From IMG/VR virus record IMGVR_UViG_3300029686_000225: 48,664 nucleotides of DNA; one strand, given 5' to 3'. The DNA is from a virus (taxonomy: Duplodnaviria > Heunggongvirae > Uroviricota > Caudoviricetes). This document shows, piece after piece, positions 700-44,672 of this stretch. The position numbers and the translations under genes are program-made. The first letter of the stretch is position 1; each line of letters starts with the position of its first letter. The notes below the pieces were generated by a model, which was not told the DNA's origin, searched no databases, and saw only the letters and a program-made list of their open reading frames with translations.

Positions 700-1055
700 C
701 AGTGAGTGACCTCTTCAAAGGTACAGTTAAAATCGGTATACATGGCATTATCCGAAATGCTCCACTCCCTGCAGACAACCCGGACAGTCCTGTTGTGTTT
801 TGGCGGACGCCACAAAAAAGCACGAATCCCGGCATGACGGGATAAAAAACTGTCCAGCGCGGCACGGGAGTATTCATCTGTGACACGAAATACCGGTTTA
901 AACGTTTTCAGATCCGCATTCAGACCACCAGCCCGTCGCTGTTCATATCCGTCACCAAACTTTACCGTAATAACTGATGGCTTTCGTGTCGTCTCCATCC
1001 CCTCACGGGGGATCCAGTTAAAAACTTCAGGCTCAGGCACTGTATAATCCTCCAT
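699..1055 (-). CDS. phage minor tail protein M (lambda gpM-like)
   Basis: VKFGDGYEQRRAGGLNADLKT motif matches lambda gpM VRFGDGYSQRAPAGLNANLKT; ATG at 1055 chosen, 998 and 1085 are alternatives. Confidence 0.7.
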   Translation of the reverse strand: MEDYTVPEPEVFNWIPREGMETTRKPSVITVKFGDGYEQRRAGGLNADLKTFKPVFRVTDEYSRAALDSFLSRHAGIRAFLWRPPKHNRTVRVVCREWSISDNAMYTDFNCTFEEVTH

Positions 1056-4000
1056 CCCGACGCGATGACTGCATAATTGACACAACCCTGCTGTCGATCA
1101 GATCCACCAGTCCCCTGGCTGAGCGCGTATCTATCTCGCCATTGCTCCCTTGATTCTGAATGCTGATGTGATACACGGGAGAATAAACAAATCCACCGCC
1201 ACCATTCACATTGCCAATGGCTCTGACCCCAAGAGAGCCGTCCGCTGCCCGTGTCAGTGGCATGATAGCTTCAGGCCCGGCCTCGCCCATCAGCCCGGCA
1301 CCTTTCGCAAAAGCAAAATACGTCGGTGTATCCACAATAGTGTTACTGTAAGCACTCAGATTTGCCGATGTGTAAACACCACCTTTTGCGTTTGCCACCG
1401 CCCCCGAAATCCATCCGCCGACCGTACCAAGCCACCCTCCGGCACCGGAGAGTGACTTCAGTCCGTTAACAATGGCCGCATTCATCAGAATTTTTGAAAC
1501 TTCCCGGAGAACTGAACTCCCCCAGTTCCTCCACTCCACAACATTCCCGGCCAGTGCATCGGAAATATTTGATACCAGCCCGTCCATCGTGGAAACGACA
1601 GCATCTGCCGCCTGTGAAGCATAATCGGTGGCACTGTCTGCCCAGTTGGTCAGTCCCTCCTGGAGTCCGGCATTCCAGTTATTACGTAAAGCATCGGCCT
1701 TTGCATAATAATCCTGCTGATCGCTGAGACGCTCTTCCAGATATTTTTTATTCAGTTCTTTCTCCTGTTTCCACAGGGCTTCTTCAATTTCTCCGGCCTG
1801 ATACTGTCTCAGCAGCTCGTTATTTTTCTGCTCAAACTCATGCCGGATACTCCACATTTCCTGGAGTCGTTCACGCATCCGTGAGCCTTCACCATATCCC
1901 AGCAACTGCGCGTCGTCAGATGCCCGGGCACTGGCATTACTGTCCGCCAGACTGCTTTCATACGCGGCAAACTGCTCACGAATCTTTTTCTGGTCGATGA
2001 GTGCTGCATTCTGCAAAAGCGTTTTTTTCTGCGCTTCTGACAGGGTTGATAATTCGCCCTGACTGACCTGATATTTCATCTTAGCCAGTTCAGTATTCTG
2101 CCCTGCCAGTGCTATCTGTTCTTTTTGCTGTTTAATCAGCCGTTTATAAATATCTTCTGTTTTTTCCGCTTCGGTCTTTTTATGCGCTTTGGGTTTATTT
2201 GCCTGGTTATTTCGCCAGGCATCCAGTGAGTTATTGATATAATTCTGTCTGGCTGTCTGATACACCTCCCCCACAAAGCCGAGATCATCCGCAGCATAGC
2301 CCAGTCGGGCACGCTCACGCGCTTCCCCCTTAAGGCGGGACAGAGCCAGTTCGCGCTTGCTGTTATTCAGTGCGGTCTGCTGTTTATCATCCAGAGTTGC
2401 CTGTGGTAGCCGTAACGGTACATTCACCAGCCCCTGTCGCTGCTGAAGTAATTCATTACCAAGCCCGAGAAGGCGATTAAACTCGGTATGCTGCCCATTC
2501 ATGATCAACAGGGACTGATACGCTTTATTTTGTTCCGCCGCCTGTTGACGGATCAACGCCACCCGTCGCTCCTCCAGCCCGGCAAGCACATCCTGAATGG
2601 ATTGCGCTTTGCCCTGCATTTGAGTGAGACGGGATTGTTCAACTGCCAGTTGATTTGTTGCTTCGGCAAGCCCTTTAAGGATGATTTCAGCACCCGAACC
2701 ACTCTGCGAACTTTCATCAAGCCAACGTTGATAATCAGCAATTTGATTTTTCAGTCCGCGAATTTTTCCTTCCTGTTCGCTAATCAGGCGATTTTGTTCC
2801 TCCAGTGCCTGCCGCGTCTTTTCCTCATTATCTGACGCTTCAGGAAGCGACATTGCCGACGTTTTCTGGCGAATTTCGTCGATTGTTGCGGCATACTGGC
2901 GTGCAGATTCTCTGGCCTGCTCCTGATTCTGATACATCGTGTACCAGGCCGCGGCCCCCAGCATGACAAGCCCCGGCACCCCACCAACCAGTCCCAGTGC
3001 TCCACTTAACAGACGACTTCCCACTGACGTGACAGTATTCAGCATTGTCTGTGCTGCTGTTCTGGCCGCAATATTACGGGTAAGTGATGCCTGGGCAGCA
3101 GCCAGTTTCGCTTCTGCGGCTGCCTGCCTTTCGGTACCGCGAGCAGCAACAACCGCCTGTTGCGCACGATAAACCGCCGCACGCGCCCTGGCTGTTGCTA
3201 TCTGTGTCCCCCGGAGCTGCGCTTCCGCAAGAGCCACTTCGTTTCTGGCTGCAGTAATTAATCCGGCAGTTGCAGATCCAGCAGAAGACGCCATATTGCC
3301 AAAATATCGGGCTACCCCGACGGCAACCAGAGCACCGGCAGCGGTTGCCACAGTGTCAATATTGCCTGCAATACCATTCAGCACACCGGAGAGCGTCTTC
3401 GTCACTCCGCTTGCCTCGTTCGCACCACCAACCCAGGCCATAAAGGCGTTTTCAACTTTGGTTGCAGAGGATGAAACCGTATCAGGCATTGCCGCATATT
3501 CATCACGTAATGCCCCAAGCTGACTAATCAGTGCAGGAACAACCTTATCGGCGGTCAACTTTCCGTTATCCGCCATGGCCTTCAGATCCTTACGGGCAAC
3601 CCCCATTCCCGCAGCCAGCGCACGAATAACACGATCGCCGTTCTCATTCACCGAGTTAAACTCTTCACCGCGCAGCACTCCCTGCGCCAGTGCCTGACTG
3701 AACTGCGTGATCACCGAACTGGCTTCTGCTGTACTGGCACCGGATAATTTCAGGCCCGTGGAGATCGCCTCGGTGACTTTCAGTACCTCCTCAGAACTGT
3801 AACCATACTCCCGCATGGAAGCTGCAGAACGGGCAAAAAGGCTGGCGTTATCAGAAAACGCCGTCCCCGTTCTCTGGCTGATCGCCATTAATTCACGCTG
3901 TGATGCCTGAAAATCATCACTGGACTGTGAGGCCTGCTTCAGACGGGCATTTACTGAATTCCACTCATCGGCGAGAGAAATAAGATGACCGGTAGCAAAA

Positions 4001-4239
4001 GCCCCGGCAAATGCCCCCGCCATATTCAGTGCCGAAGATTTAGCTGTATTTATCTGATCCGTCACTTCTGCCAGTGCACGCCGCATTTCACGGGATGCAG
4101 CAGCGGACTGCCGGCTTCCGTTCTGCATGGTACGGTAGTAATCCTGCCCCATACGCGAAGCCCGGGAGATCTCTGACTGGAATGACCGGGAATTTGCCGA
4201 GATTTTAATAATCAGTTCACGTAATGTCGCCACACTCAT
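1033..4239 (-). CDS. tail tape measure protein (lambda gpH-like)
   Basis: 1068-aa Ala/Gln-rich, coiled-coil-rich ORF between the G/GT chaperone and gpM; ATG at 4239 preceded by GGAG. Confidence 0.9.
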   Translation of the reverse strand: MSVATLRELIIKISANSRSFQSEISRASRMGQDYYRTMQNGSRQSAAASREMRRALAEVTDQINTAKSSALNMAGAFAGAFATGHLISLADEWNSVNARLKQASQSSDDFQASQRELMAISQRTGTAFSDNASLFARSAASMREYGYSSEEVLKVTEAISTGLKLSGASTAEASSVITQFSQALAQGVLRGEEFNSVNENGDRVIRALAAGMGVARKDLKAMADNGKLTADKVVPALISQLGALRDEYAAMPDTVSSSATKVENAFMAWVGGANEASGVTKTLSGVLNGIAGNIDTVATAAGALVAVGVARYFGNMASSAGSATAGLITAARNEVALAEAQLRGTQIATARARAAVYRAQQAVVAARGTERQAAAEAKLAAAQASLTRNIAARTAAQTMLNTVTSVGSRLLSGALGLVGGVPGLVMLGAAAWYTMYQNQEQARESARQYAATIDEIRQKTSAMSLPEASDNEEKTRQALEEQNRLISEQEGKIRGLKNQIADYQRWLDESSQSGSGAEIILKGLAEATNQLAVEQSRLTQMQGKAQSIQDVLAGLEERRVALIRQQAAEQNKAYQSLLIMNGQHTEFNRLLGLGNELLQQRQGLVNVPLRLPQATLDDKQQTALNNSKRELALSRLKGEARERARLGYAADDLGFVGEVYQTARQNYINNSLDAWRNNQANKPKAHKKTEAEKTEDIYKRLIKQQKEQIALAGQNTELAKMKYQVSQGELSTLSEAQKKTLLQNAALIDQKKIREQFAAYESSLADSNASARASDDAQLLGYGEGSRMRERLQEMWSIRHEFEQKNNELLRQYQAGEIEEALWKQEKELNKKYLEERLSDQQDYYAKADALRNNWNAGLQEGLTNWADSATDYASQAADAVVSTMDGLVSNISDALAGNVVEWRNWGSSVLREVSKILMNAAIVNGLKSLSGAGGWLGTVGGWISGAVANAKGGVYTSANLSAYSNTIVDTPTYFAFAKGAGLMGEAGPEAIMPLTRAADGSLGVRAIGNVNGGGGFVYSPVYHISIQNQGSNGEIDTRSARGLVDLIDSRVVSIMQSSRRDGGLYSA

Positions 4240-7227: not shown

Positions 7228-8454
7228 TTACGCAGCGGCTTTCTGGCGGACCGCAGCGCCGATCTTCATCAGCTTAATCGCCTGAGAATCCACCAGCATA
7301 CCGCCGGTTCGTTTGGTGGTATAAAAGCCCACAAACGGTTTGTTTGTGTACGGATCGCGCAGGATACGGGTGCCGATACGATCAACGATGGTATAGCCGC
7401 GTTTGAAGTTACCAAACGCAATGGCTTTTGCATCGGCAGCAATATCCGGCATCTGCTCATTCTCAACGATGCCATACCCCGCCAGTGAAGAAGGCTGACC
7501 CAGCTCAATGCCCGGACGCCACAGATAATTTCCGTCGTTATCCTTCAGCAGGCGAATGGCAAACAGGCTGCTGTTATTCATCATGAACTTCGCGCCGCTA
7601 CGGTGCGCCTTGCGCAGGGTGTAAATCAGTTTAATGATCGCATCAGCGGTCACGCCAGAAGCCGAACCGGAAGCGATGTGCTGAAGTTTGCCAAACGCAC
7701 GGGTCTTGTCATCTTCATCGGTGGACTCATAAGCCAGAAAACCTTTTGGTTTTTTGCTGCCGTCGCCACTGGTAAAGGCAATTTCTTCCTGTTCGGCAAA
7801 TTCCAGCGCCAGTTCACTGTTGATCCAGTCTTCCACATTGAAAAAAGCATCATCGAGCATTTTCTGGGTAGCCTGCGGGTTGCCGTAGATTTCCCCCATA
7901 AAAGGTTCAATCAGCCCCAGTTTTGAGGTGGCGGTTTCCGGACGCGTATCCGTTTCCCCCACCCATCCGGACTTAGTGCCGCCCAGATTCACCAGTTTTT
8001 TATAATCCGAGCCACCGAGGGTGATCACAGTGGCTTCCTGGCGCATCACCACCTCATCTTTCAGCAGCGTCAGGATGGTACGATCCAGTTCTTCCGGAAT
8101 GGCATAACCACCATCTTCATCATTACCTACCTGAAGCGCCTTACGTTCAAGTTCACGCAGACCGTCTTCACGCCCCTTGCGCATAAATCCGATAAACGCT
8201 TCTTTGTGTTCACCGGCAACTTTATTTTGCGTGCCGCCTGCCGGACGCTTGATGTCTGCCAGCTCTTTTTCCAGGTCGCTTTTCAGGTTCTCCAGCTCGC
8301 TGATTTGCCCGTTCAGGCTTTCCACCTGTTCGGCCAGCTTGCTTTTTTCCTGTTCGATCGCGTCAATGCGCTTGTCGTTTTTTGCCTTAAAATCGTCAAA
8401 CTTCTGCTGCAAATCCTGCGCGACCTGTTCAACGTCTTTAATATCAACAGCCAT
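7228..8454 (-). CDS. major capsid protein, HK97 family
   Basis: 408 aa with N-terminal coiled-coil delta region and HK97-fold body; AGGAG RBS. Confidence 0.9.
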   Translation of the reverse strand: MAVDIKDVEQVAQDLQQKFDDFKAKNDKRIDAIEQEKSKLAEQVESLNGQISELENLKSDLEKELADIKRPAGGTQNKVAGEHKEAFIGFMRKGREDGLRELERKALQVGNDEDGGYAIPEELDRTILTLLKDEVVMRQEATVITLGGSDYKKLVNLGGTKSGWVGETDTRPETATSKLGLIEPFMGEIYGNPQATQKMLDDAFFNVEDWINSELALEFAEQEEIAFTSGDGSKKPKGFLAYESTDEDDKTRAFGKLQHIASGSASGVTADAIIKLIYTLRKAHRSGAKFMMNNSSLFAIRLLKDNDGNYLWRPGIELGQPSSLAGYGIVENEQMPDIAADAKAIAFGNFKRGYTIVDRIGTRILRDPYTNKPFVGFYTTKRTGGMLVDSQAIKLMKIGAAVRQKAAA

Positions 8455-8467
8455 TATTTACTCCTGG

Positions 8468-9118
8468 TTAAAATTTAAGATTTTTCAGTGCATTCAGTGC
8501 GGCATCCACATCCTCAGCATCACGCAGGGATAAAGCGCCGTATCCCCCGGCCATGAATGCTTTGGCCTGGGTTCGCGAAAGTCCAACATCGCGCAGGACC
8601 CGCTCAATGATTTTCTGATCAGGGATCTCCCCACGCGCCAGCGCATTTTTCACATCGCTGATGCGAGCCTCATCATTGGAAGGAAACGTCACCAGACTGA
8701 CCTCCCACAGGTCGATCTCTTTCAGCAGGAATACCCCTTTTTCACGGTCGTACTCCCAGTCTTTCAGGATGTAGCCAATAGAAAGGCCGGTTAAAGAACC
8801 GGCCTTCATATGGGCATGTGCACGTTTTGCCAGGGGATCATCATCAATGAGTAATCGTCCCCTGACATAAAGCCCGACATCATCTTCTTTCATTTCGGTG
8901 TACACACCGATGGGCTCATCTATGCGGTGCTGCCAGAGCAACGCAGGCAGCGCCTTTTTTTCGCTCCATTTCTGGAGTGTTGTGGTAAAGGCTCCGGGGA
9001 CCACCACATCATCGTGGCTGTCCTTAACACCAAAAACAGAACCGTAACCTTCAAATTCCCCGGAATCACTGACGGATTTCAGGTTCAGCGGTATATCAAG
9101 ACGCTGTTTTGTCTGCAT
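8468..9118 (-). CDS. prohead protease, HK97 family
   Basis: Between portal and capsid genes; ATG at 9118 with AGGAG 7 nt upstream. Confidence 0.85.
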   Translation of the reverse strand: MQTKQRLDIPLNLKSVSDSGEFEGYGSVFGVKDSHDDVVVPGAFTTTLQKWSEKKALPALLWQHRIDEPIGVYTEMKEDDVGLYVRGRLLIDDDPLAKRAHAHMKAGSLTGLSIGYILKDWEYDREKGVFLLKEIDLWEVSLVTFPSNDEARISDVKNALARGEIPDQKIIERVLRDVGLSRTQAKAFMAGGYGALSLRDAEDVDAALNALKNLKF

Positions 9119-10337
9119 CTCCACTCTCCTTTTTCTTACCGTTGTCATCGCCAGCAGAGGGACTGGTGGTCATGTTCATCGGTGTCAGATACACATCACC
9201 GCCCGGTCGGGGATTCATATCTTCCAGATCACGGCAGTCATTAGGGGAATAAATCCCCCAGTTGATCCCCGTGGCATACGCTTCAAAGCGGGATTTCATG
9301 TCGCCACGCAACAATGCTCCGGCATTAAATTTGGCGTAAAACTTCCCCTGCTTGCTCTCCCTGACCAGCCCTGTATTGATCCGCTGCTCAATACGGGTCA
9401 GATACGGCACAAGGGAATAGTTAATGAAACCAAGCCCCAGCTCTTCAATATTGTTGAAGGTGGCGCGGTCAGTGTTCTGCACCATATGCAGTGGCACGCG
9501 GAAAAGACGACAGATTTCTTCCAACTGAAACTTGCGGGTTTCCAGGAACTGGCTGTCCTCGGCATTCAGTGCCACCGGCTTCCAGTCCAGCCCCATTTCC
9601 AGAATCATCGGACGATGAGAATTTCCCAGCCCGACATGCCGTTCCTCAAAGTCCTTTTTGATACGCGCATAAGCCTGATCAGAAAGTTGTTGATCCGTAC
9701 GCAACACACCGGATGTCACAGCGCCGTTACCAAACAGCCTGGCGCCGTGCTCCTCGGTTGCCGCTGCCAGTGAAATGGCCTCACGCGCATACGCAATGGG
9801 ATTCAGCCCGACCAGTCCGTTCAGCGTCAGGGTGCGCACATGCCAGATTTCATCCTGGGTCAACACATCCACGGAACCATCCGGAAACGTCACCTGATAA
9901 ACCGGCTGCCACTGGCTGTTCAGCTTCGGTTCCACACAGCCCGGATCTATCGGGAGAAGCTCCACCACTTCCCCCAGTGCCTTTACCTTGTAGGCGTAAA
10001 AATTACCCTGCAGACACAGGCAGACAATGACCAGTTCCCAGAATTCCTGCGGCGTCATGTAGCCATTGGGTTTTGCCGAAATCAGCTTATGCAGTCGTTC
10101 ATCCACCGCCCGTGTTTTCAGGGTGCCGGTGATTTTGTAGAGGCTGCAGGGCAGCATACCAACAGACTCTGCCAGCACCCTGACGCAGGAATACACTGCC
10201 GTCAGCCGCATGGCCCGCTTACTGCTGATCCGCTTTCCGGTATAGGTGTCATATGACAACCCAAGTTCTTCCGCAAGCATCCCGGGCGTTGTGGCGGGGG
10301 GATTATTTTTACGTTGAAAAAGCCCCTGGAAAAACAT
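9096..10337 (-). CDS. portal protein, HK97 family
   Basis: 413-aa ORF with portal-family pattern; GGAGGTGA RBS. Confidence 0.9.
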   Translation of the reverse strand: MFFQGLFQRKNNPPATTPGMLAEELGLSYDTYTGKRISSKRAMRLTAVYSCVRVLAESVGMLPCSLYKITGTLKTRAVDERLHKLISAKPNGYMTPQEFWELVIVCLCLQGNFYAYKVKALGEVVELLPIDPGCVEPKLNSQWQPVYQVTFPDGSVDVLTQDEIWHVRTLTLNGLVGLNPIAYAREAISLAAATEEHGARLFGNGAVTSGVLRTDQQLSDQAYARIKKDFEERHVGLGNSHRPMILEMGLDWKPVALNAEDSQFLETRKFQLEEICRLFRVPLHMVQNTDRATFNNIEELGLGFINYSLVPYLTRIEQRINTGLVRESKQGKFYAKFNAGALLRGDMKSRFEAYATGINWGIYSPNDCRDLEDMNPRPGGDVYLTPMNMTTSPSAGDDNGKKKESGDADKTAS

Positions 10338-11782: not shown

Positions 11783-13444
11783 TTACACACCATCAAACGC
11801 CGCAAGCCGCTCTTTGTGGCTGTCGCTCATATCGAATGCAAATTCCTCATGCTCTGCCTGGAATGTGCCAAACGCCATCAGCGCCGCAACGCTCGGGTCT
11901 ATCTTGTTGGATGATTTTTTCTTGTTCGGCTTGATATTGGCGTTCGCGTCACTCTGCATCACAACATTACTCATTGACCAGGCCAGCACCGGATCACCAC
12001 GATGCACAATCACCTTCCGGTTAACAAAAACTTCGAACGATTTCGCCGCCGGACTGAAACGAAGGTATGTTTGCGGGAACGGCTCCACCTCAAATCCTGC
12101 GCCCTGTAGCTGCGTCCTCAGGTGCGTGGCGTTCCATGTATCGAAACCCACCAGCCTGATATTGAAATTCTCTGCATCCGCCATGATGTCATCACGGATA
12201 CGGTCATAATCAATGCAGTCACCCGGTGTTGTGCGTATCCAGCCCGCCTTTACCCACTGGCGATAGATGGCGCGGTTTTTATTGGCGGGGTTCTGTAGCT
12301 GAAATTCCGGCAGATAGTGACGGGAAACCAGCATAATCTTTTTACCGACCGGAAAGGCATAGCACACGCTGGAAATATCGCTGGTTGATGATAAGTCCAG
12401 CCCCGCGTAGCACTCCTGCCCGTATAAATCCGCCTCCGCGAACGTTCCGGCGCACTCCGCCCATGCACCATTACCCATCCACGGCGTAGCCCCCTGACAC
12501 CAGATATTGAATCGCTTGGTGAGCATTTCCACCCACTGCGACGGAATACCCCGCGCTTTCTGGATGGTTGAGGCCAGTTTTTCACGATCGACGGAAACAT
12601 CGATATTGGGATTCGCCTTTATCCACATCTCCGGATCGTCAACCTCGCTTTCATCATCCAGCTCGTAAATCAGCACGAACATGGATTCGTTCACCTCTTC
12701 ACCATCCAGTATCTGGCAGCAATAGTCGTAGTGTTGTTTACAGGCTGAAACAACGTTGCTCCCCGATGTGGTGATGGCAAATAATAACCCCTCCGGGCGT
12801 GCCCCCATTCCCAGTTCAAGCGCGGAATAAACCCCGTTGTCAGGGTGCAGGTGATATTCATCCACAATGGCAAGACTCGGGTTTGTACCTTCAATGGTTG
12901 CCGCTTTTGCTGCCAGCGGCTTTAACAGGCTGTTGGTTTTTGGGTGTATCACCTTGTGTGCCTGAATATTTACCCGCTTTCGTAACGGTCGGGATAAAAG
13001 GCACATCTGACGCGCATCATCAAACACGATCCGCGCCTGATCACGACTCACGGCGGCGGTGTAAATATCCTGCTGCCCGTTTTCCATAACCAGAAACCAG
13101 TTAGCCAGGATAGCGGCGACCGTGGATTTGGCATTTTTTCGCGGTACTTCAATGAATGCGCTGGTGTATTTGCGCCGCCCGGTGGCCTTAACCTTAAAGC
13201 CCAGGATGCACGCAAAGGCGAACTGCTGCCACGGCTCCAGTTTAATTGGGCTACCGCGCATTGCGCCTTTTACGTGCGGACACACCCTGGAAAAGGCAAT
13301 AAACCGCTCCACGACCTCCGGATCGAACGTGTAAAGGGGGTTTTCAAGGTCATAAAAATACCGTTTAACGGCCTGTTTCAGTCGTTTACAGGCCGTAATT
13401 TTGCCGTTTTTTACGCCTTCTGCGTACTCATGCCAGGCGGTCAA
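11783..13444 (-). CDS. terL: terminase large subunit (satellite copy, intact)
   Basis: 553 aa; P-loop-like region RKNAKST, Walker B IVDEYH, C-terminal nuclease domain; TTG start with GAGGA RBS, overlapping terS end. Confidence 0.9.
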   Translation of the reverse strand: MTAWHEYAEGVKNGKITACKRLKQAVKRYFYDLENPLYTFDPEVVERFIAFSRVCPHVKGAMRGSPIKLEPWQQFAFACILGFKVKATGRRKYTSAFIEVPRKNAKSTVAAILANWFLVMENGQQDIYTAAVSRDQARIVFDDARQMCLLSRPLRKRVNIQAHKVIHPKTNSLLKPLAAKAATIEGTNPSLAIVDEYHLHPDNGVYSALELGMGARPEGLLFAITTSGSNVVSACKQHYDYCCQILDGEEVNESMFVLIYELDDESEVDDPEMWIKANPNIDVSVDREKLASTIQKARGIPSQWVEMLTKRFNIWCQGATPWMGNGAWAECAGTFAEADLYGQECYAGLDLSSTSDISSVCYAFPVGKKIMLVSRHYLPEFQLQNPANKNRAIYRQWVKAGWIRTTPGDCIDYDRIRDDIMADAENFNIRLVGFDTWNATHLRTQLQGAGFEVEPFPQTYLRFSPAAKSFEVFVNRKVIVHRGDPVLAWSMSNVVMQSDANANIKPNKKKSSNKIDPSVAALMAFGTFQAEHEEFAFDMSDSHKERLAAFDGV

Positions 13445-13784
13445 GCTCGTCCTCTTCCTCTGTTTCCGGTGGATTTCTGCGGCGGCTTACCGGGTCAAAA
13501 CCCAGCAAAGAAGCCATTTTGATCATTATTCTTTCTGCGTCAGCCTTTGCGCTCAGAGCGGGGTTTCTGCTTTCGCTGCCCTGACTGTTAACAATGCTGA
13601 AGCCGCGCGTCGCAAGGTCTTCGACGGCTTTGCGGTATATGGAGTAGTTAACGCAATACAGTTCCAGATTGCTCCAGTCGGCGGGGGTAAGGTCTTCCCG
13701 CCCGGAAAGCTGGCGCGATTTTTCCTTCCACTGCCTGACCGCGATTTCATCCAGGTAAGCGGGGGCTTTTGGTGGTCTTGCCAT
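13428..13784 (-). CDS. terS: terminase small subunit (P27 family)
   Basis: Starts MARPPKAPAYLDE; homologous to the prophage TerS (MSGPPKTPPRL...); immediately upstream of terL. Confidence 0.8.
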   Translation of the reverse strand: MARPPKAPAYLDEIAVRQWKEKSRQLSGREDLTPADWSNLELYCVNYSIYRKAVEDLATRGFSIVNSQGSESRNPALSAKADAERIMIKMASLLGFDPVSRRRNPPETEEEDELDRLA

Positions 13785-14072
13785 GTTCTTTTTTCGCCCA
13801 ATTATTTTCAAAAAAATTTCCGTGCACAAAAATTTGAGGAGGCGGTCGGTGTCCGGCAGGGACGGTTTTGTCCTGAAAACCTCCCCCACCCCCTCTGACG
13901 GCCTCACCAGCGATTGCGAAAACATTCCATGACCTCGCGGTCACGGTCGGTTAATCGCTTCGCTGTGGTGCGTTCTGTGCGCCCTGTCCTGTTGGCTTTG
14001 TGCCCTGTCTCCTGTGTCTTCCATAAGTCACGCTGCCTTATCAGTCCACGTATCAGCCTGTTTTGCTCCTGT

Positions 14073-19503: not shown

Positions 19504-21627
19504 TTAATCTTCTGCCTCAGGCTGGAACATCAGCACGTAAAAAACATGCTGCTTCCCCCCAATTTTGCCGAGCGCCTTTTTCTTGTAACGGCGATCGTTA
19601 CCCGCTTCCAGCATTCCGGCAGCACTCAACGCGCGGGCAAAGTGAGACGGATTAAATCCCTGTGCTATCTCACCCTCAAATACATGCGGGAACGTGTAAA
19701 AACGGAACTCGTCATCTTCGTTTCTGATACACCCCTTTCTGTATCCGGCAAGCTCTTTAATCGGTAAATCACGCTCGTCGGTGTTGGGCCACGGAAGGTA
19801 TCTGCTGAATCCGAACGACGCTAAAAAAGCCTCTGCCTGTTCAACCATCTGTTTAAACTCCCTGTTACCCGTGCCGAACTCCTTCACCCAGGCATTAAAA
19901 TTATGCTGAATGGCATCGCGGCACGCCTGAACATCCCAACCAGTAATATGGACGGAAAGCACCAGCGCCGACTCCAGCATGGCGAATCGTTCCCCCACAC
20001 GGTGAACCTGTTCGCCGTAACTCTCCGGTATCAGGTTGCGCCACCGTTCACGGCATGCCCTTACCGTATCCTTTGCCTCCTGCTGGTGGTCTGCCAGCCA
20101 TTTAACCCATTCACGCCCCGCCGCCCCGTGATTTTCTGTCCAGGCATCCTTTAACGCGTCTGCGTGTGCCTTTCCGGTGCTGTATTCGTGAAACTGCGTG
20201 GCTTTTTCCATTGGCACGTTAAGCAGGCGGACAAGCTGCCCCGCCTTGACTTTTATCCCCTCCGTTTTGAGGAATGTCTCAACGTCCATTTCTCCGGTGC
20301 TGATTGCCACCGTGCGCCAGTGTTTGATCTCCCTGTTGCCGCCGTCCTTCGCCCCCTGTAATTTCCCCGAACCGTTAAACAGCGTATAAGCCGACGTGGA
20401 CACTTCCCGCGCGTTTCCGGCCTGGCCTATTTCATCCAGGGGTAAAAGCCCGTCATTGTGTGCCTCTGCTTCGTTGGCGATACCTAACGCTGTGCCGTAC
20501 CAGGTCAGCCGCTGCGCGTCCGGCTCTCCCCATAAACTTGATGCGATGTTCTGCGTTGTGGTCTTACCTGCCGATGACTGTTCGAAAAGATGTACCCCGA
20601 AGCCGTCAGCACCCACCAGCCCGATTAATGGTGCGGATAGCGATACCGCCACACCCAGCATCATGGACGGATTACCACCAGCCAGTCGCGCCACACTGTC
20701 GCGCCAGCCCTCCGCCGTTCCTGCCACGGAATAACCATTAACGGCAGCCGTTTTTCCGGTAAACAGGACTGGCTTTTCGCAATCACCAATGACCGAACCG
20801 TCCGGCATGATGTACGCGCCAAAATGCCAGCCCGTTGTTGTGCTTAACTGCCATTCCTCATGGTTTCCGCTTAACTGCATCCAGTCAGCCAGGATAGCCC
20901 TGTATTTACCGTTGGTTGTCACGTTCAGTCCGTGGTCTTTCAGCAGCCGCCAGCCGTCACGGTCGCCAATGCCACCGCACGGAACCGCCATCGTGATGAC
21001 TTCATGGTTTGCTGGCTTTTTCCAGCGCATCACGCGGTAATGCTCTTTGCCGATTGTCCCCGTTCCCAGTAGCTCAAGCGGGGAGCATAACCACGTTTCA
21101 GGCCGGATAATTTCGCCTGACTGCTTATCCACTTTTGGCGTTACCCAGAAAACACCATCGGCGCGGCTTTCAACGCGGGGCTTTAATTCATCATCACCCG
21201 GGCTTTCTGTGATTTTTTTCTTTAAGGGCAACACCAGACTTTCCCCGCGCTCGTATTCGTCTTTGAGGCGAGGCAACTGGTCGGATAAATCCGCCGGGCT
21301 GGTGTCAGTTATCCCCGCGTATTCGTATACGGTCTTCACGCCAGCCACAGCCAGCAACGTGACGATCTGTGTGAGGCTACGTTCAGTGATGTGCCCTGCG
21401 CGGTAAATACGCACACACTGACGGCTATCATCAATAATTTGATAACCGGTAATATCTTTCAGGTGTTCATCTGACAGAACGACAGGCGGCACATTGTCGG
21501 CGGCAATATGCTTACCTGCCCATTCCTGCCACTCTTTCGCATGGCTCCACGCATCACTACCCGCAAAGATGATAACCTCCGTCATTTTGTCGGCTGGCTG
21601 GTGCTTTAAGTTTGGTGCGCGCTTCAT
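19504..21627 (-). CDS. replication initiator, putative primase/helicase
   Basis: 707 aa with Walker A-like SSAGKTT; sits next to the iteron cluster as PICI/P4 replication genes do. Confidence 0.7.
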   Translation of the reverse strand: MKRAPNLKHQPADKMTEVIIFAGSDAWSHAKEWQEWAGKHIAADNVPPVVLSDEHLKDITGYQIIDDSRQCVRIYRAGHITERSLTQIVTLLAVAGVKTVYEYAGITDTSPADLSDQLPRLKDEYERGESLVLPLKKKITESPGDDELKPRVESRADGVFWVTPKVDKQSGEIIRPETWLCSPLELLGTGTIGKEHYRVMRWKKPANHEVITMAVPCGGIGDRDGWRLLKDHGLNVTTNGKYRAILADWMQLSGNHEEWQLSTTTGWHFGAYIMPDGSVIGDCEKPVLFTGKTAAVNGYSVAGTAEGWRDSVARLAGGNPSMMLGVAVSLSAPLIGLVGADGFGVHLFEQSSAGKTTTQNIASSLWGEPDAQRLTWYGTALGIANEAEAHNDGLLPLDEIGQAGNAREVSTSAYTLFNGSGKLQGAKDGGNREIKHWRTVAISTGEMDVETFLKTEGIKVKAGQLVRLLNVPMEKATQFHEYSTGKAHADALKDAWTENHGAAGREWVKWLADHQQEAKDTVRACRERWRNLIPESYGEQVHRVGERFAMLESALVLSVHITGWDVQACRDAIQHNFNAWVKEFGTGNREFKQMVEQAEAFLASFGFSRYLPWPNTDERDLPIKELAGYRKGCIRNEDDEFRFYTFPHVFEGEIAQGFNPSHFARALSAAGMLEAGNDRRYKKKALGKIGGKQHVFYVLMFQPEAED

Positions 21628-24616: not shown

Positions 24617-24838
24617 TCAGGGTTTCCATTCACCCTTTACCCATTCCAGCACCTCAGATAAGCGCCAGACTTTTGTTTGTGGGCCAATACATATTTTCCG
24701 TGGAAATTTTCCTTCCTTTTCAAGTAATGCTCTGTGTCTCCTGCCAAGAGCTGTTAACCATGCACATTCATCTTCCTTAATCATCCTGTCGATTGTTTTA
24801 TCATTTTCAAGTTCTTCACGCGTAACTATTTCAATCAT
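24617..24838 (-). CDS. alpA: AlpA-family transcriptional regulator (second copy)
   Basis: HTH_17-like segment AWLTALGRRHRALLEKEGKFPRKICIGPQTKVWRLSEV; GGTGA RBS. Confidence 0.7.
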   Translation of the reverse strand: MIEIVTREELENDKTIDRMIKEDECAWLTALGRRHRALLEKEGKFPRKICIGPQTKVWRLSEVLEWVKGEWKP

Positions 24839-26039
24839 TACCGTCACCACTAATTAGCTTATTCAGATAGTCGTACCACCAGTTCATAGCTTCTTTTTTT
24901 CTGTCCATATACTGACTTCTGTTATAAACCCCGGCAACACCGCCTAATGTGTGCCCAAGCAACTGTTCAACCACATTATGTTCAAAACCATGATCACTTA
25001 GCTTTGTGGCAAACACTCTTCGCATATCATGCGCCGTCCATTTTTCCGAGTGTTTCATCCTTTTCCATGTCTTACCGATAGTTACGCTTGCCGTACACTG
25101 ACGCATATCAAACCCAATCACATTTTCTTTGTTACCTGTTATTTTTTTTAACGTAACTAACCAGTTAAACATGCCATCAGGAATCGGTCTGATTATTTCC
25201 CTGCCATTTTTGCTATGATCAGCGGGAACGCGCCATAATTTCTTATCAAAATCCCACTCTACCCAGGACGACAGTAATACTTCTGACAGTCGACAACCAA
25301 AAACTACCAGGAAACGTAAAATAATTCGGTTTTCATATGATAATTCGTGATTGTCATAATCAGTATTAATACTTCGCCATAAATCTCTGATTTCATCATC
25401 TGTTAAAACCCTGCTTCTTCGCGCAGACTTTTTTCCCACATCACAGACCTCAAGATCATCAATTTCATGACTAATCGCGTATTTTCTTACCCTACAAAAT
25501 TTAAGCGCCTGTTTTGATATACGCAACAAAGCTCCGGCCTGTACAGGTGCTACTTTTTTTATTTTGTCAAAACACTTGATCCACATAGATATAGAGCAAT
25601 CACTAAGTGGTACATGACCAATCACCGGATAAATATGTTTACCAAAGCACTGCCTGATATGTTCTGCTCCCCTACGCTTATCCATTGCATAATTATCAAG
25701 CCAGTATTCAAGTGCCTCACGAACGGTAACAGGTTGCAAGGTGGCTTCCCGTTCAATTTTTATCTGAATCCGTGGATCTCTGCCCTCCGCAAGCCAGGTT
25801 CGACACTGATCGCGCATCTCTCTCGCTGATTTGAGACTCAGATCAGGATATTTTCCAAGTGTCAGCCAGATGGGCGCGGTTCCCCTTCCCGCCAGTCTGT
25901 AAAAGAAAACAAAACTAACACATCCGTATTTACTGACCCGTACCGAAAGCCCGTTACCATCAGCGATGGTTTCCTGCCTCTCACTCCTGCGCCCAAGCAG
26001 GGAACGAAGTTTTTTATCGCTCAGTTTGTTTAGCGCCAT
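24831..26039 (-). CDS. int: tyrosine integrase (P4/PICI-type) of the inserted element
   Basis: About 402 aa; C-terminal catalytic region with R...H..R and HDMRR...LLGH...Y; adjacent to the element junction. Confidence 0.85.
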   Translation of the reverse strand: MALNKLSDKKLRSLLGRRSERQETIADGNGLSVRVSKYGCVSFVFFYRLAGRGTAPIWLTLGKYPDLSLKSAREMRDQCRTWLAEGRDPRIQIKIEREATLQPVTVREALEYWLDNYAMDKRRGAEHIRQCFGKHIYPVIGHVPLSDCSISMWIKCFDKIKKVAPVQAGALLRISKQALKFCRVRKYAISHEIDDLEVCDVGKKSARRSRVLTDDEIRDLWRSINTDYDNHELSYENRIILRFLVVFGCRLSEVLLSSWVEWDFDKKLWRVPADHSKNGREIIRPIPDGMFNWLVTLKKITGNKENVIGFDMRQCTASVTIGKTWKRMKHSEKWTAHDMRRVFATKLSDHGFEHNVVEQLLGHTLGGVAGVYNRSQYMDRKKEAMNWWYDYLNKLISGDGND

Positions 26040-26210
26040 GTGATTTATAACCCGTTTTTGCAATACACAGTGCAATACACAAATGATGAAAACAGCCAGA
26101 ACCTTCCAGAAAAAACAAAAACGACGAACAAGAAAAAATCTTTTTCTTTCATTTGGTTACTAAAAAAATCAGGACAGGTCGCACTGTTGTTACGGCGTGA
26201 TGTTACTTTC

Positions 26211-26224
26211 TTGGTAAAAAAATT
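26211..26224. repeat. right junction repeat of inserted element (TTGGTAAAAAAATT)
   Basis: Partner of 11261-11274; lies in terL codons F-T-K. Confidence 0.7.
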
Positions 26225-41890: not shown

Positions 41891-42529
41891 ATGAGCAAGC
41901 AAACAATATCTGAACGCATAACCCAACGTATGCATGCGCTAAACCTGAAAGGCAAAGACCTTGTCAATGCCACTGGCGCATCAAAAGGCTCCGTAAGTCA
42001 ATGGATGAACGGTGGAGGAGCGCCGTCCTCGCGTTACATAAGTTCACTGGCAAAGATATTGAAAGTAAACGAAAATTGGCTTCTTAATGGAGGAGAGTTA
42101 AATACAGGTGATTCGCTTGATCTATCTTTACCGCCGATAAAAACGGTTCCGCTACTATCACTTCAGCAGGCAGCAAGCTGGAGTGATTATATGAAAAATT
42201 CCTCAATAACCTCTTGTGTGCAGCTTGTCGGAGAAATCCCGGCCAATACCTTTGCAGTTGTTCTAGAGAGTGACAGTATGTCAACATCTGGTGGGGGAGT
42301 TTCCATCCCAAATGGATCAACAGTTTTTGTTGATCCCGATCGAACCGCACAACCAGGAAATATTGTCCTTGCCTTACCCAAAGGGACCACAACACCTGTC
42401 ATTCGTAAACTGGAGATAGAAGGGCCGGATATTCTTTTAGTCCCCACGAATCCTCGCTACCCTTCAATTATGCTGGATGATCTATCTTGCATATTGGGTG
42501 TATGCTTTAAAATTCAACAAGATATTTAA
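41891..42529 (+). CDS. CI-like repressor (HTH plus S24 LexA-like peptidase domain)
   Basis: 212 aa; N-terminal HTH (LKGKDLVNATGASKGSVSQW), C-terminal S24 motifs (LESDSM, K in VIRKLEIEG). Confidence 0.85.
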   Translation: MSKQTISERITQRMHALNLKGKDLVNATGASKGSVSQWMNGGGAPSSRYISSLAKILKVNENWLLNGGELNTGDSLDLSLPPIKTVPLLSLQQAASWSDYMKNSSITSCVQLVGEIPANTFAVVLESDSMSTSGGGVSIPNGSTVFVDPDRTAQPGNIVLALPKGTTTPVIRKLEIEGPDILLVPTNPRYPSIMLDDLSCILGVCFKIQQDI

Positions 42530-42819: not shown

Positions 42820-42975
42820 ATGGATACTATCGATCTTGGCAACAACGAATCTCTGGTATACGGCGTGTTTCCCAACCAGGACGGCACATTCACCGCGATG
42901 ACGTATACCAAAAGCAAAACGTTTAAAACCGAATCTGGCGCACGTCGCTGGCTGGAAAGAAATTCAGGTGAGTGA
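42820..42975 (+). CDS. ydfA: YdfA-like small protein (DUF1391)
   Basis: 51 aa from MDTIDLGNNESLVYG with strong RBS. Confidence 0.6.
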   Translation: MDTIDLGNNESLVYGVFPNQDGTFTAMTYTKSKTFKTESGARRWLERNSGE

Positions 42976-42976
42976 T

Positions 42977-43105
42977 ATGGATTTCGACGCAATCATGGAA
43001 AAGGCTTACGAAGAATACTTCGAAGGCCTTGCCGAAGGCGAAGAAGCTCTCAGCTTCAGTGAGTTTAAACAGGCGCTTTCCAGTTCGGCAAAATCTAACG
43101 GCTGA
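42977..43105 (+). CDS. ydfB: YdfB-like small protein (42 aa)
   Basis: Hand-translated MDFDAIMEKAYEEYFEGLAEGEEALSFSEFKQALSSSAKSNG; AGGTGA RBS; not in the ORF track. Confidence 0.5.
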   Translation: MDFDAIMEKAYEEYFEGLAEGEEALSFSEFKQALSSSAKSNG

Positions 43106-43134: not shown

Positions 43135-43353
43135 ATGCAGAAACGAGAACCCGTCATCATCGCGCCAGACTATACCGATGATGAACTTTATGAGTGGATG
43201 CGCCAGAAAATTAAGGCAGCGCAGGACCTGAAATGGGCCAATGAAGCCAGGGCTAAGCAAGCTGAAAATCTGTCCGCTCTGGAGCAGGATATCACCAATC
43301 TGGAAAAAGCAGCGGCATTAAGCATTGCCAGAATGATTACATACCCGCGTTAA
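43135..43353 (+). CDS. ydfC: YdfC-like protein
   Basis: 72 aa; GAGGAAT RBS; same position as ydfC in the Qin dicB operon. Confidence 0.6.
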   Translation: MQKREPVIIAPDYTDDELYEWMRQKIKAAQDLKWANEARAKQAENLSALEQDITNLEKAAALSIARMITYPR

Positions 43354-43488
43354 TAGTTAACCAACGAGACTAAGGTTGATAATTAAGGAGTTCTCCACGA
43401 GGCAGGTGGAGTGCGTGCGCCGGACACGGGTGAGCATCCGGCACGTTCTTTAAAAATCTGGATAGTCCCAACTTATTTAAACAGTTAA

Positions 43489-43920
43489 TTATCTTGAGTT
43501 CATCCAGAACTTATTATTACAGGCGGGGCAAAAAGTACGAAAATGAGCATCAAGGCGCATTATTTCCATTGGCTGCAGTACAGATATTACCTTTTTTCCA
43601 AAACATTGTGGGCAAAGATGCACTGTTATCTCAGTATCGCCTATAAATTGCTTCTTGGAATACACAAGAGTTCCAGAATCAAGCTTGTTAAGTTTGTAAC
43701 CTTCCGCCTGTTGCTGAAAGTCTTCTATCTCTGCAATTTTTGCTTTGAGAGATGCGGCTTCTTCCTGATAAGAGCGCACCATCTCAATGAGCGATACGCA
43801 TTCAAACTGAACAGACGTAAGTTTTGAAAGCATATCGCTGACAGCGGAATTTATCTCAGTTTGAGTTTTGGCATTCAGAATACCCTTTGCCATTACCGCA
43901 GTTTCTTTGATTGCCGACAT
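43489..43920 (-). CDS. hypothetical coiled-coil protein with C-terminal zinc ribbon
   Basis: About 143 aa from ATG at 43920; CPQC...CPAC; antisense insert between ydfC and dicF/dicB. Confidence 0.45.
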   Translation of the reverse strand: MSAIKETAVMAKGILNAKTQTEINSAVSDMLSKLTSVQFECVSLIEMVRSYQEEAASLKAKIAEIEDFQQQAEGYKLNKLDSGTLVYSKKQFIGDTEITVHLCPQCFGKKVISVLQPMEIMRLDAHFRTFCPACNNKFWMNSR

Positions 43921-44235
43921 TGCTGCTGAGAACTCAACTATCACGTTACATACTCTTCTCGTTGTTGGGGATATCCGGATTATACAAATTTCTTGTTGTT
44001 GGGGAATAACAGGAACCACCTCGCCTGACGTGGTTAAAAGCAGGCACACAACACGAAAGCGCACGGCGAAGTTCGTCTCACTGTACGGTGTCGTTAAATT
44101 TAATTCGACCGTGCGCTTCCGGTTGTGGCACTCCGCGAAATGGCGCGGCGATAAGTATGGCGAAGCTATCCTTTCCTCGAGATAACACCGGGTTGTCAGG
44201 TTGACCATACGCCTTAGTGACAACCCCGCTGCAAC

Positions 44236-44300
44236 AACCCATGTTGATTACCTTTTGGCGGGTATCCGTTCTTTGTTCCCTTGTGATACCCGCCCTTTTT
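44236..44300 (+). ncRNA. dicF: DicF-like small RNA candidate ending in intrinsic terminator
   Basis: UUUUGGCGGGUAUC...GAUACCCGCC then U5, just upstream of dicB; shares the UUUGGCGG(G)UAUC core with E. coli DicF. Confidence 0.4.
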
Positions 44301-44483
44301 AAAGTGAATTTTGTGATGCGGTGAATGCGGCTCAGCGCACGCGGAACAGTTAAAAAGGCCAGTTGACTTCCGTATTGGTTCTTATGGGTGGGTTCTCTGT
44401 ATCCGGCGTTAATTGTTAACTGGTTAACGTCACCTGGAGGCACCAGGCACCGTATCACAAAATTCATTGTTGAGGACGCGATA

Positions 44484-44672
44484 ATGGAAACGTTATTACC
44501 AAACGTTAATACGTCTGAAGGTTGTTTTGAAATTGGTGTCACTATCAGTAACCCTGTATTTACTGAAGATGCCATTAACAAGAGAAAACACGAACGGGAG
44601 TTATTAAATAAAATATGCATTCTTTCAATGCTGGCCCGTTTACGTCCGATACAAAAAGGATGCTGGCAATGA
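44484..44672 (+). CDS. dicB: cell division inhibitor DicB
   Basis: 62 aa from METLLPNVNTSEGCFEIGVTISNPVFTEDAINKRK, matching E. coli DicB; GAGGA RBS. Confidence 0.85.
   Translation: METLLPNVNTSEGCFEIGVTISNPVFTEDAINKRKHERELLNKICILSMLARLRPIQKGCWQ

Follow-up and report, generated by a model that had tools for sequence, protein, structure and literature searches.

Rip1 ("ring interacting pore 1") is a prophage-encoded antiphage protein described by Patel et al. (2026, Nature 651:1060). According to the summary given in a review (PMC13434031), with which a meeting report (PMC12908700) agrees, Rip1 alone is non-toxic; it assembles on the small terminase or portal rings of an invading phage, forms membrane pores and aborts the infection. 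In the same summary, twelve Rip1 subunits encircle the 11-mer small terminase, the C-terminal half touches the terminase, the N-terminal part is an amphipathic helix, the pores of the complex lead to premature lysis, and escape mutations lie in the portal in Pseudomonas phages and, among those of Escherichia coli, in the small terminase. Here, we analyze a minus-strand gene in a stretch of 48,664 nucleotides (nt) of Caudoviricetes DNA (IMG/VR record IMGVR_UViG_3300029686_000225; hereafter, the window), a lambdoid prophage that encodes a repressor, replication proteins, an exonuclease and an integrase, in which the gene lies antisense within a Qin/Rac-like early operon. A sequence-only reading of the window had proposed that this gene might be accessory or defence cargo. 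Our results support the conclusion that the gene, which we refer to as rip1, very probably encodes a Rip1-family antiphage protein and is a "moron" of a Qin/Rac-like lambdoid prophage; this confidence applies jointly to the Rip1 identity and to a working model in which a sas-like antisense RNA would silence the gene.

The window protein resembles the Rip1 of HK446 (PDB 9OOX) and the prophage Rip1 of Pseudomonas aeruginosa in full-length homology and fold, in size (151 versus 164 amino acids, aa) and in being the product of a single temperate-phage gene that is antisense to its neighbours. It differs in lacking a C-terminal tail of roughly 15-25 residues that is present in most homologues in the alignment, and its gene occupies the slot between ydfC and dicF in a Qin-like operon. 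HkaP of HK620, HK629 and HK630, labelled a "putative superinfection exclusion protein", belongs to the same family and aligns end to end with the window protein; its gene is likewise antisense within an early-left operon and has two repeats, a -10-like box and a 32-nt element upstream, but the repeat differs (CCCCTACAG versus CCCCAACAAC in the window), and the gene is found between cIII and hkaQ/N, whereas rip1 occupies the space from ydfC to the dicF position.

The regulatory DNA of rip1 finds its closest described counterpart in the sieB/esc/sas locus of P22 and lambda, which shares with the window a homologous promoter/leader module, a sas homologue on the opposite strand, and the same slot and orientation in the early-left operon. 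According to a secondary account that cites Ranade & Poteete 1993, sas is made by lytically growing P22, blocks SieB translation and still permits synthesis of Esc, a shorter inhibitor that keeps P22 safe from the exclusion system it encodes. The cargo of that locus, the membrane protein SieB (PF14163), is unrelated to the Rip1-type cargo of the window, and an action of sas on rip1 would be by analogy. Two further systems are similar in logic. Tab of JBD26 (Patel et al. 2024, PMC10884400) is encoded in the same slot as gp30 of JBD30, and both Tab and Rip1 are late-acting, abortive-type defences aimed at virion assembly proteins; however, Tab has 83 aa, blocks tail assembly via the tape-measure protein, and leaves self-immunity to an anti-Tab protein and not to an RNA. 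The Tha/Ith "noncontiguous operon" of Staphylococcus aureus prophages (PMC11087260) places a defence that senses a virion protein antisense to lytic transcription and turns it off on induction; it differs in its unrelated HEPN effector, its mainly antisense-encoded protein inhibitor and its Gram-positive host.

A divergent member of the Rip1 family

The identification is carried by homology over the full length of the protein. A profile of 59 family members matched chain L of PDB 9OOX, "ring interacting pore 1 (Rip1)", with an expect value (E) of 2.8e-31 (profile positions 4-153 to chain residues 14-160), and this was the only solved structure that the profile matched full-length; the window protein as a single sequence matched the same Rip1 with E 2.4e-7. 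In the AlphaFold2 model (predicted local distance difference test score 86), two long helices (residues 2-24 and 28-80) lead into a beta-rich domain that bears the CPQC and CPAC motifs. In a Foldseek search of the PDB with this model, the only matches at E <= 0.001 were 9oox_L and 9oox_M ("HK446 Rip1 in complex with T6 small terminase"), both with a probability of 1.0, the latter with template modelling scores of 0.64 (query) and 0.75 (target), and a root-mean-square deviation of 3.1 Å over 119 columns. Profile search and structure prediction, both suggested in the sequence-only reading, lead to Rip1, and the description of a coiled-coil/zinc-ribbon protein given there fits the predicted fold with its two long helices and four-cysteine beta domain. 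The four cysteines (C111, C114, C139 and C142) are invariant in the 59 diverse family members, making CxxC...CxxC a family-wide feature in this alignment. The window protein falls into PHROG 1244 (E 7e-47), a group of unknown function, and forms one alignable family with JBD30 gp30; this family is large, numbering 3898 representatives (50% identity) at E <= 0.001 and 2582 at E <= 1e-10. The window gene adds a new and divergent member to the Rip1 family but does not represent a new kind of system, and the proposal of accessory or defence cargo gains support from its full-length homology to a characterised prophage-encoded antiphage protein.

No above-threshold hit to the window protein was found in Pfam, NCBIfam or PADLOC (2023). 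SLATT_5 was rejected (17 bits in Pfam, where the cut-off is 29.5, and 17.9 in NCBIfam, where it is 60), as was PADLOC RTasSLATT (E 0.005), all SLATT hits being confined to the coiled-coil stretch; hits to TerY_C, zinc-ribbon and coiled-coil families were sub-threshold and, like those to SLATT, were set aside as compositional. The source names "Predicted nuclease with TOPRIM domain" and "HypA/HybF" were supported by no profile. The protein had no PF14163 hit and is not a SieB, and Tab (JBD26 gp31) shows no sequence relationship despite the shared Pseudomonas slot.

The minus-strand open reading frame (ORF) first described at 43489-43920, with 143 codons from an ATG and the motifs CPQC...CPAC, is present and intact, but its start has to be moved. 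Most homologues in the alignment begin with MI(A/V)E eight codons upstream of this ATG, where the window reads GTG-ATA-GTT-GAG, and RefSeq annotates genes of 456 base pairs (bp) for the E21845 homologue and for the 99.6%-identical KFu019 copy; we therefore take the GTG at 43944 as the most likely true start. A mechanically called ORF of 244 aa from a TTG is not the gene: its first 93 codons run across the promoter/leader module, whose conservation in front of unrelated genes is at the DNA level. The frame is open from the GTG to the stop codon and retains the four cysteines and every invariant position of the family. The ratio of nonsynonymous to synonymous substitution rates (dN/dS) against the E21845 allele is 0.25, and on sequence comparison the gene is under purifying selection. 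The two alleles (window 43489-43944 and L002 4136-4591 of E. coli E21845) are sharply mosaic: identity is 48% over residues 1-65 (56% in nucleotides) and 95% over residues 66-151, and the upstream module is identical at 101 of 104 positions; recombination appears to have swapped the N-terminal helical segment alone.

Among sequenced phages, tblastn found full-length relatives in HK620, HK629 and HK630 (hkaP), PhiR29, several Klebsiella phages, and the Pseudomonas Mu-like phages DMS3, JBD30 and D3112. The window protein falls into a distinct enterobacterial subfamily, with identities of 51-76% among the nearest relatives. The homologue runs antisense to the surrounding genes in all annotated phages and prophages that were inspected. 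This holds for hkaP of HK620 and HK630, for PhiR29 and 611R5, where the gene lies beside the repressor, for O157:H7 strain 8368, where it occupies the equivalent ydfA-exonuclease slot, for other E. coli (O103:H2 12009, E21845 and KFu019), and for JBD30, where gp30 lies between the genes for the small and the large terminase, a position that is also that of Tab in JBD26 and matches the slot described for Pseudomonas Rip1. A homologue detectable at the nucleotide level is present in 734 of 5426 complete E. coli genomes (about 13%), with 42 at >=95% identity, and 59 of the 5426 hold at least 80% of the 947-bp interval from ydfC to the dicF position (43354-44300) at about 95% identity; all E. coli homologues among the matches listed are annotated "hypothetical protein". 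With so patchy a distribution, the rip1-like gene is not a conserved core component of these prophages, and a function for it is now known from its family.

The sieB-type module and a putative sas-like antisense RNA

A module of roughly 100 nt that also precedes sieB of lambda (with the repeat ACCCCTACAG) and hkaP of HK620 lies immediately upstream of rip1. On the strand of the gene, the sequence of the 100 nt leading up to the start is GCCTGCTTTTAACCACGTCAGGCGAGGTGGTT - CCTGTTAT - TCCCCAACAAC - AAGAAATT - TGTATAAT - CCGGATA - TCCCCAACAAC - GAGAAGAGTATGTAAC - GTG, and the same order of 32-nt element, repeat, -10-like box and second repeat is found before distant homologues too. The direct repeats that the sequence-only reading had noticed before the gene, as TTGTTGGGGA, are real: two copies of 16 nt (43956-43971 and 43990-44005) are identical at 15 of 16 positions with a spacing of 34. 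They vary in concert among module variants, lambda and P22 sharing the version of HK620. A -10-like box stands at the place equivalent to that of the candidate box TGTATAAT in the modules of lambda sieB, HK620 hkaP and 611R5, and a weaker one in that of PhiR29. A reading of the repeats as part of a type III toxin-antitoxin system was dropped because there are two copies only, these flank the -10 box and the cargo varies.

The highly conserved 32-nt element holds two interleaved complementary pairs, AACCAC/GTGGTT and GCCTG/CAGGC, and could serve as the 3' structure of the sas-like RNA, as a DNA site upstream of the promoter, or as both. Its 24-nt core, TTTTAACCACRTCAGGCNNGGTGG, occurs exactly in at least 120 IMG/VR contigs (L009-L128); conservation inside the core is biased by the search pattern, and outside it variants of the CAGGC arm back the pairing weakly. 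In 120 such loci, the first sizeable ORF behind the module was of the Rip1 type in 12 according to a Rip1 hidden Markov model (16 in a blastp cluster, which takes in short fragments) and SieB in about 28 (E 1e-27 and 1e-29 to PF14163 for the cargo tested). The others included a membrane protein of 106 aa in 12 loci, a 66-aa protein in 7, a zinc-ribbon protein of 68 aa in 6 and a 61-aa protein in 4, with further cargo proteins of 92, 98, 113, 136 and 166 aa. Representatives of the cargo other than SieB and Rip1, with the 92-aa cluster left out, gave no significant Pfam match and no confident PADLOC match; we regard these uncharacterised ORFs as candidate exclusion or defence genes.

The module exists in two forms. 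In the long form (lambda, P22 and the window), two repeats enclose a -10-like box; the short form has the hairpin only, and in it GGTGGTATCC, 17 nt after TTAACC, reads as an extended -10 where the long form has TTCC. The TTCC suggests that the repeat may have been born of a duplication of roughly 34 nt that moved the promoter.

The opposite strand of the module is homologous to sas. Window positions 43950-44048 align on the plus strand to nt 11-113 of P22 sas, with 79 of 93 ungapped columns identical. The P22 sas sequence comes from RNA-seq, in which it was detected only in infected cells (PMC13397905), and it is the complement of the module, with two CUGUAGGGG repeats followed by GAACCACCGAGCCUGACGUGGUUAAAAGACAGGCAC. 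In the window, the plus strand from 43936 to 44052 complements the leader and the start of rip1 (GTG 43944-43942), the sas homology beginning at 43950, and the ydfA-dicB operon is read in the direction of the sas-like RNA. No Rfam family covers the upstream module, lax filters included; Rfam matches to ZFAT-AS1 and ZEB2-AS1 are chance.

Within the sas-like stretch, a hairpin is conserved as RNA structure. P22 sas folds an equivalent hairpin, and in both RNAs the distal repeat provides the 5' arm and the GGGG loop. Across 16 sequences, 90.8% of cells are paired, and 6 of the 11 pairs show compensatory changes; the covariation score is 0.515, compared with at most 0.17 for slid controls, and none of 500 shuffles reaches 0.515. 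Of 53 distinct versions, 40 are more stable in the plus (sas) orientation and 10 on the other strand. The window hairpin has -10.1 kcal/mol on the plus strand versus -1.4 on the other, because its two G-U pairs would turn into A-C mismatches on the strand of the gene. Together, the hairpin and the sas homology make the TTGTTGGGGA repeats features of a sas-like RNA as well as flanks of the -10 box.

These data also bear on an explanation in which repeats and element act at the DNA level only, as promoter/operator or as a recombination "boundary", with no antisense RNA on rip1. The repeats do flank the -10 box in the manner of operator half-sites and vary in concert; in variants without the second repeat, the conserved element reads as a promoter with a -35 TTAACC, 17 nt and TG-n-TATCCT; and the element both marks the cassette boundary relative to K-12 and, as expected of a recombination joint, stands before many unrelated cargo genes. 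However, P22 makes a detectable RNA from the same stretch on the antisense strand (PMC13397905), the pairing of the hairpin has been kept through at least six compensatory pair changes, and the strand bias due to the G-U pairs favours the sas orientation. We therefore consider an exclusively DNA-level role unlikely, although it retains some weight; roles in DNA and as an antisense RNA are compatible with each other.

The rip1 cassette in its Qin-type operon

In blastn, the match between the window and K-12 Qin (L006) stops at 43444 and restarts at 44036, and the extra DNA is thus a compact cassette made up of the 3' tail, rip1 and the promoter/leader (Table 1). The sequence-only reading had described an insert of about 900 bp into an operon in which ydfC is followed directly by dicF. 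The spacer from ydfC to the dicF position indeed measures about 890 bp, but only 591 bp of it are extra, and in K-12 itself 340 bp separate the two genes. The synteny comparison with Qin-like prophages shows the cassette to be accessory, without counterpart in K-12 Qin. The 29-bp filler of K-12 Qin together with its right flank (L006 2625-2680; GAAAGGATATTTCCCTGAAAAGTCAGACC) resembles a collapsed module end when compared with window 44005-44050, AAGGATACCACC...GGTTAAAAGCAGGC; on this resemblance, the difference may reflect loss of a cargo cassette from K-12 Qin and not a gain in the window.

Table 1 Features of the rip1 locus in the window
Feature	Position	Strand	Remarks
LexA/cI-type repressor	41891-42529	+	upstream of ydfA in the Qin/Rac-like early operon
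ydfA	42822-42975	+	ORF; RefSeq names in L001, L002, L006
ydfB	42968-43105	+	ORF; RefSeq names in L001, L002, L006
ydfC	43135-43353	+	PHROG 1744; 95.6% identity to K-12; RefSeq names in L001, L002, L006
GC-rich hairpin GCCGGA-N12-TCCGGC	43419..43442		flank common to Qin, adjoins cassette boundary; read by eye
Cassette (3' tail, rip1, promoter/leader)	43445..44035		591 bp; 29 bp in its place in K-12 Qin
rip1-like coding sequence	43489..43944	-	151 aa from GTG 43944 (most likely start); ATG 43920 is the ninth codon
sas-like antisense RNA region (putative)	43950..44048	+	operon orientation; complementary to rip1 leader, ribosome-binding site and promoter-upstream DNA
Two 16-nt repeats	43956..44005		TTCT(C/T)GTTGTTGGGGA on +; TCCCCAACAAC on the strand of the gene
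Candidate extended -10 box TGTATAAT	43979..43986	-	between the two repeats; no good -35; read from sequence
Hairpin of sas-like RNA	43990..44015	+	11-bp stem, two G-U pairs, GGGG loop; fold and covariation
Conserved 32-nt element AACCACCTCGCCTGACGTGGTTAAAAGCAGGC (+)	44014..44045		one copy in window, 0 expected by chance
dicF position	about 44243-44299	+	terminator hairpin arms 44257-44266 / 44285-44294 (inverted repeat); divergent allele
dicB, 62 aa	44484-44672	+	PHROG 1251, E 4e-41; RefSeq annotations of relatives

The early operon, which crosses rip1 in the antisense direction, has ydfA, ydfB and ydfC as its upstream genes; farther downstream in it, dicB is followed by a ydfD-like gene and an exonuclease of 801 aa. 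The GC-rich hairpin at the left boundary of the cassette could be a terminator or a site of processing, for ydfC, rip1 or both; a terminator scan did not call it. At the dicF position, no Rfam DicF match was found, lax filters included. The allele present there, common to the window and strain E21845, differs from those of K-12 and O103:H2 in that the 5' flank and terminator tail are kept and the body is replaced (GGCGGGTATCCGTTCTTTGTTCCCTTGTGATACCCGCC), and may represent a DicF-like small RNA with another target range. A sub-threshold match to Rfam STnc100 (window 44293-44516, plus strand; 34 bits versus a gathering score of 47, E 8e-5) runs from the terminator tail of the dicF position to the start of dicB. 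In the KFu019 prophage that carries the 99.6%-identical rip1, an antisense gene annotated as "ECs_2282 family putative zinc-binding protein" (L131 2354-2554) lies at the ydfA/ydfB position, a second antisense cargo slot of the operon.

Two sets of packaging genes are present in window 1-27720. One belongs to a complete-looking phage with tape measure (1033-4239), major head (7228-8454), portal (9096-10337), large terminase (11783-13444), small terminase (13428-13925), primase (19504-21627) and integrase (24831-26075) genes. This phage adjoins a truncated large terminase gene (26045-27238, N-terminal part only), beside which an ORF of 160 aa (27238-27720), known from its position alone, stands in the place of a small terminase gene. 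It looks as though one phage had integrated into the large terminase gene of the other, and the truncated gene and the 160-aa ORF apparently belong to the prophage that carries rip1.

Damage of this kind raises the possibility that rip1 is a decaying or non-functional relic in a cryptic prophage, with little or no expression and no role in defence. In keeping with decay, the large terminase is truncated beside the integrase of a second phage, K-12 Qin is without the whole cassette, and the related copy of O103:H2 12009 (L001 4136-4600) has a frameshift after codon 18, its annotated form of 114 aa (cluster P0002) recurring on 83 contigs. As read from its sequence, the 114-aa form would be missing 37 residues at the start of the N-terminal helical region and may be either dead or an Esc-like inhibitor. 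In the window, by contrast, the frame is intact with all invariant positions, the dN/dS ratio is low, and the promoter/leader module is nearly identical to that of a diverged allele. Moreover, cryptic prophages often keep active defence genes. On balance, a relic is improbable. We give hardly any credence to a role as zinc-ribbon/coiled-coil regulator of the prophage, acting on the ydfABC-dicF-dicB operon, cell division or lysogeny instead of in defence: the immunity-proximal early operon, the neighbouring cell-division inhibitor DicB and dicF position, the four-cysteine ribbons of many regulators and the weak sub-threshold zinc-ribbon hits would fit it, but all zinc-ribbon Pfam hits are far under their cut-offs, full-length sequence and fold match only Rip1, and homologues in unrelated neighbourhoods, one example being the slot flanked by the terminase genes in Mu-like phages of Pseudomonas, argue against any role tied to the dicB operon.

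A working model for defence without self-triggering

Altogether, we favour a model whereby Rip1 acts in the lysogen and is silenced at induction. In the lysogen, the cI-like repressor would silence the ydfA-dicB operon while rip1 is transcribed from its own promoter, the putative box TGTATAAT (43986-43979). Upon superinfection, at the time of late gene expression, the small terminase or portal ring of the invader would scaffold about twelve Rip1 subunits via their C-terminal four-cysteine domains, and the N-terminal helices would form a membrane pore, so that the cell is permeabilised before progeny mature and the infection aborts. Both steps are proposed by homology to the characterised family. 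On induction of the prophage, early-operon transcription would run antisense across rip1 and its module, and rip1 may be silenced by transcriptional interference together with a sas-like RNA that, once processed, would cover the ribosome-binding site and the GTG start; this would limit the triggering of Rip1 by the prophage's own packaging proteins. This part of the model draws on the sas homology, the covariation of the hairpin and the arrangement of the genes. The scanner found no plus-strand promoter within rip1, and we therefore assume that the sas-like RNA is processed out of the operon transcript, probably in the manner of DicF in the same transcript; Faubladier et al. are said to have reported in 1990 that DicF is processed from its operon transcript. 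For antisense wiring that balances prophage immunity against autoimmunity, Tha/Ith provides a precedent (PMC11087260).

Several observations weigh against this model. The window protein shares only about 22% identity with the solved HK446 Rip1, about 29% (30% by tblastn) with HK620 HkaP and about 24% with JBD30 gp30; we infer the activity of this allele from family homology, and the defining features of the family are those in a review's summary (PMC13434031). A hydrophobic-moment test of the N-terminal region, which is predicted to be helical, did not single out an amphipathic helix: the maximal moment (muH) of 0.39 is matched or exceeded in 493 of 1000 shuffles, and the same analysis found no transmembrane-like segment in the window protein. 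A consensus promoter scanner, which needs both hexamers, called no promoter on either strand, and consequently the candidate -10 box, perfect in its extended -10 form, was assigned by eye; we likewise infer the transcription start of rip1 and the promoter or processing route of the sas-like RNA. The whole sas-like stretch folds no better than shuffled sequence (z = +0.28), and support for RNA structure is limited to the hairpin. In P22, sas acts together with the internally initiated inhibitor Esc, and no Esc-like product of rip1 is evident. Finally, with its truncated large terminase, the prophage that carries rip1 may be defective, and self-immunity may be moot in this strain.

We speculate that the sieB-type promoter and the sas-like RNA form a portable "self-immunity switch" fitted to many unrelated lambdoid defence cargos. 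This idea is tentative and somewhat less likely to be right than wrong; it covers jointly the proposal that the switch keeps the prophage's own terminase or portal from triggering Rip1 and the use of the module as a handle for new small defence genes. What may be new is the idea that the shared module of sieB/sas type serves Rip1 and other cargos as a general regulatory cassette. However, the link may have been noted earlier in the Rip1 paper or the HK620 genome paper, and the label "putative superinfection exclusion protein" for hkaP in HK620 suggests that the positional analogy had already been seen. To our knowledge, the location of a Rip1-type gene in the Qin/dicB operon has not previously been highlighted.

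The analysis offers a function for a gene that is labelled "hypothetical protein" in RefSeq and has a homologue in about 13% of complete E. coli genomes, O157:H7 included, and it locates a pore of the Rip1, abortive-infection type within the well-studied Qin/dicB operon. By linking Rip1 to the 30-year-old sieB/sas module, it suggests how a prophage may escape its own assembly-sensing defence, and it provides a conserved DNA motif with which further cargo genes of this slot can be harvested. Such genes affect host range in phage therapy and the behaviour of prophages on induction.

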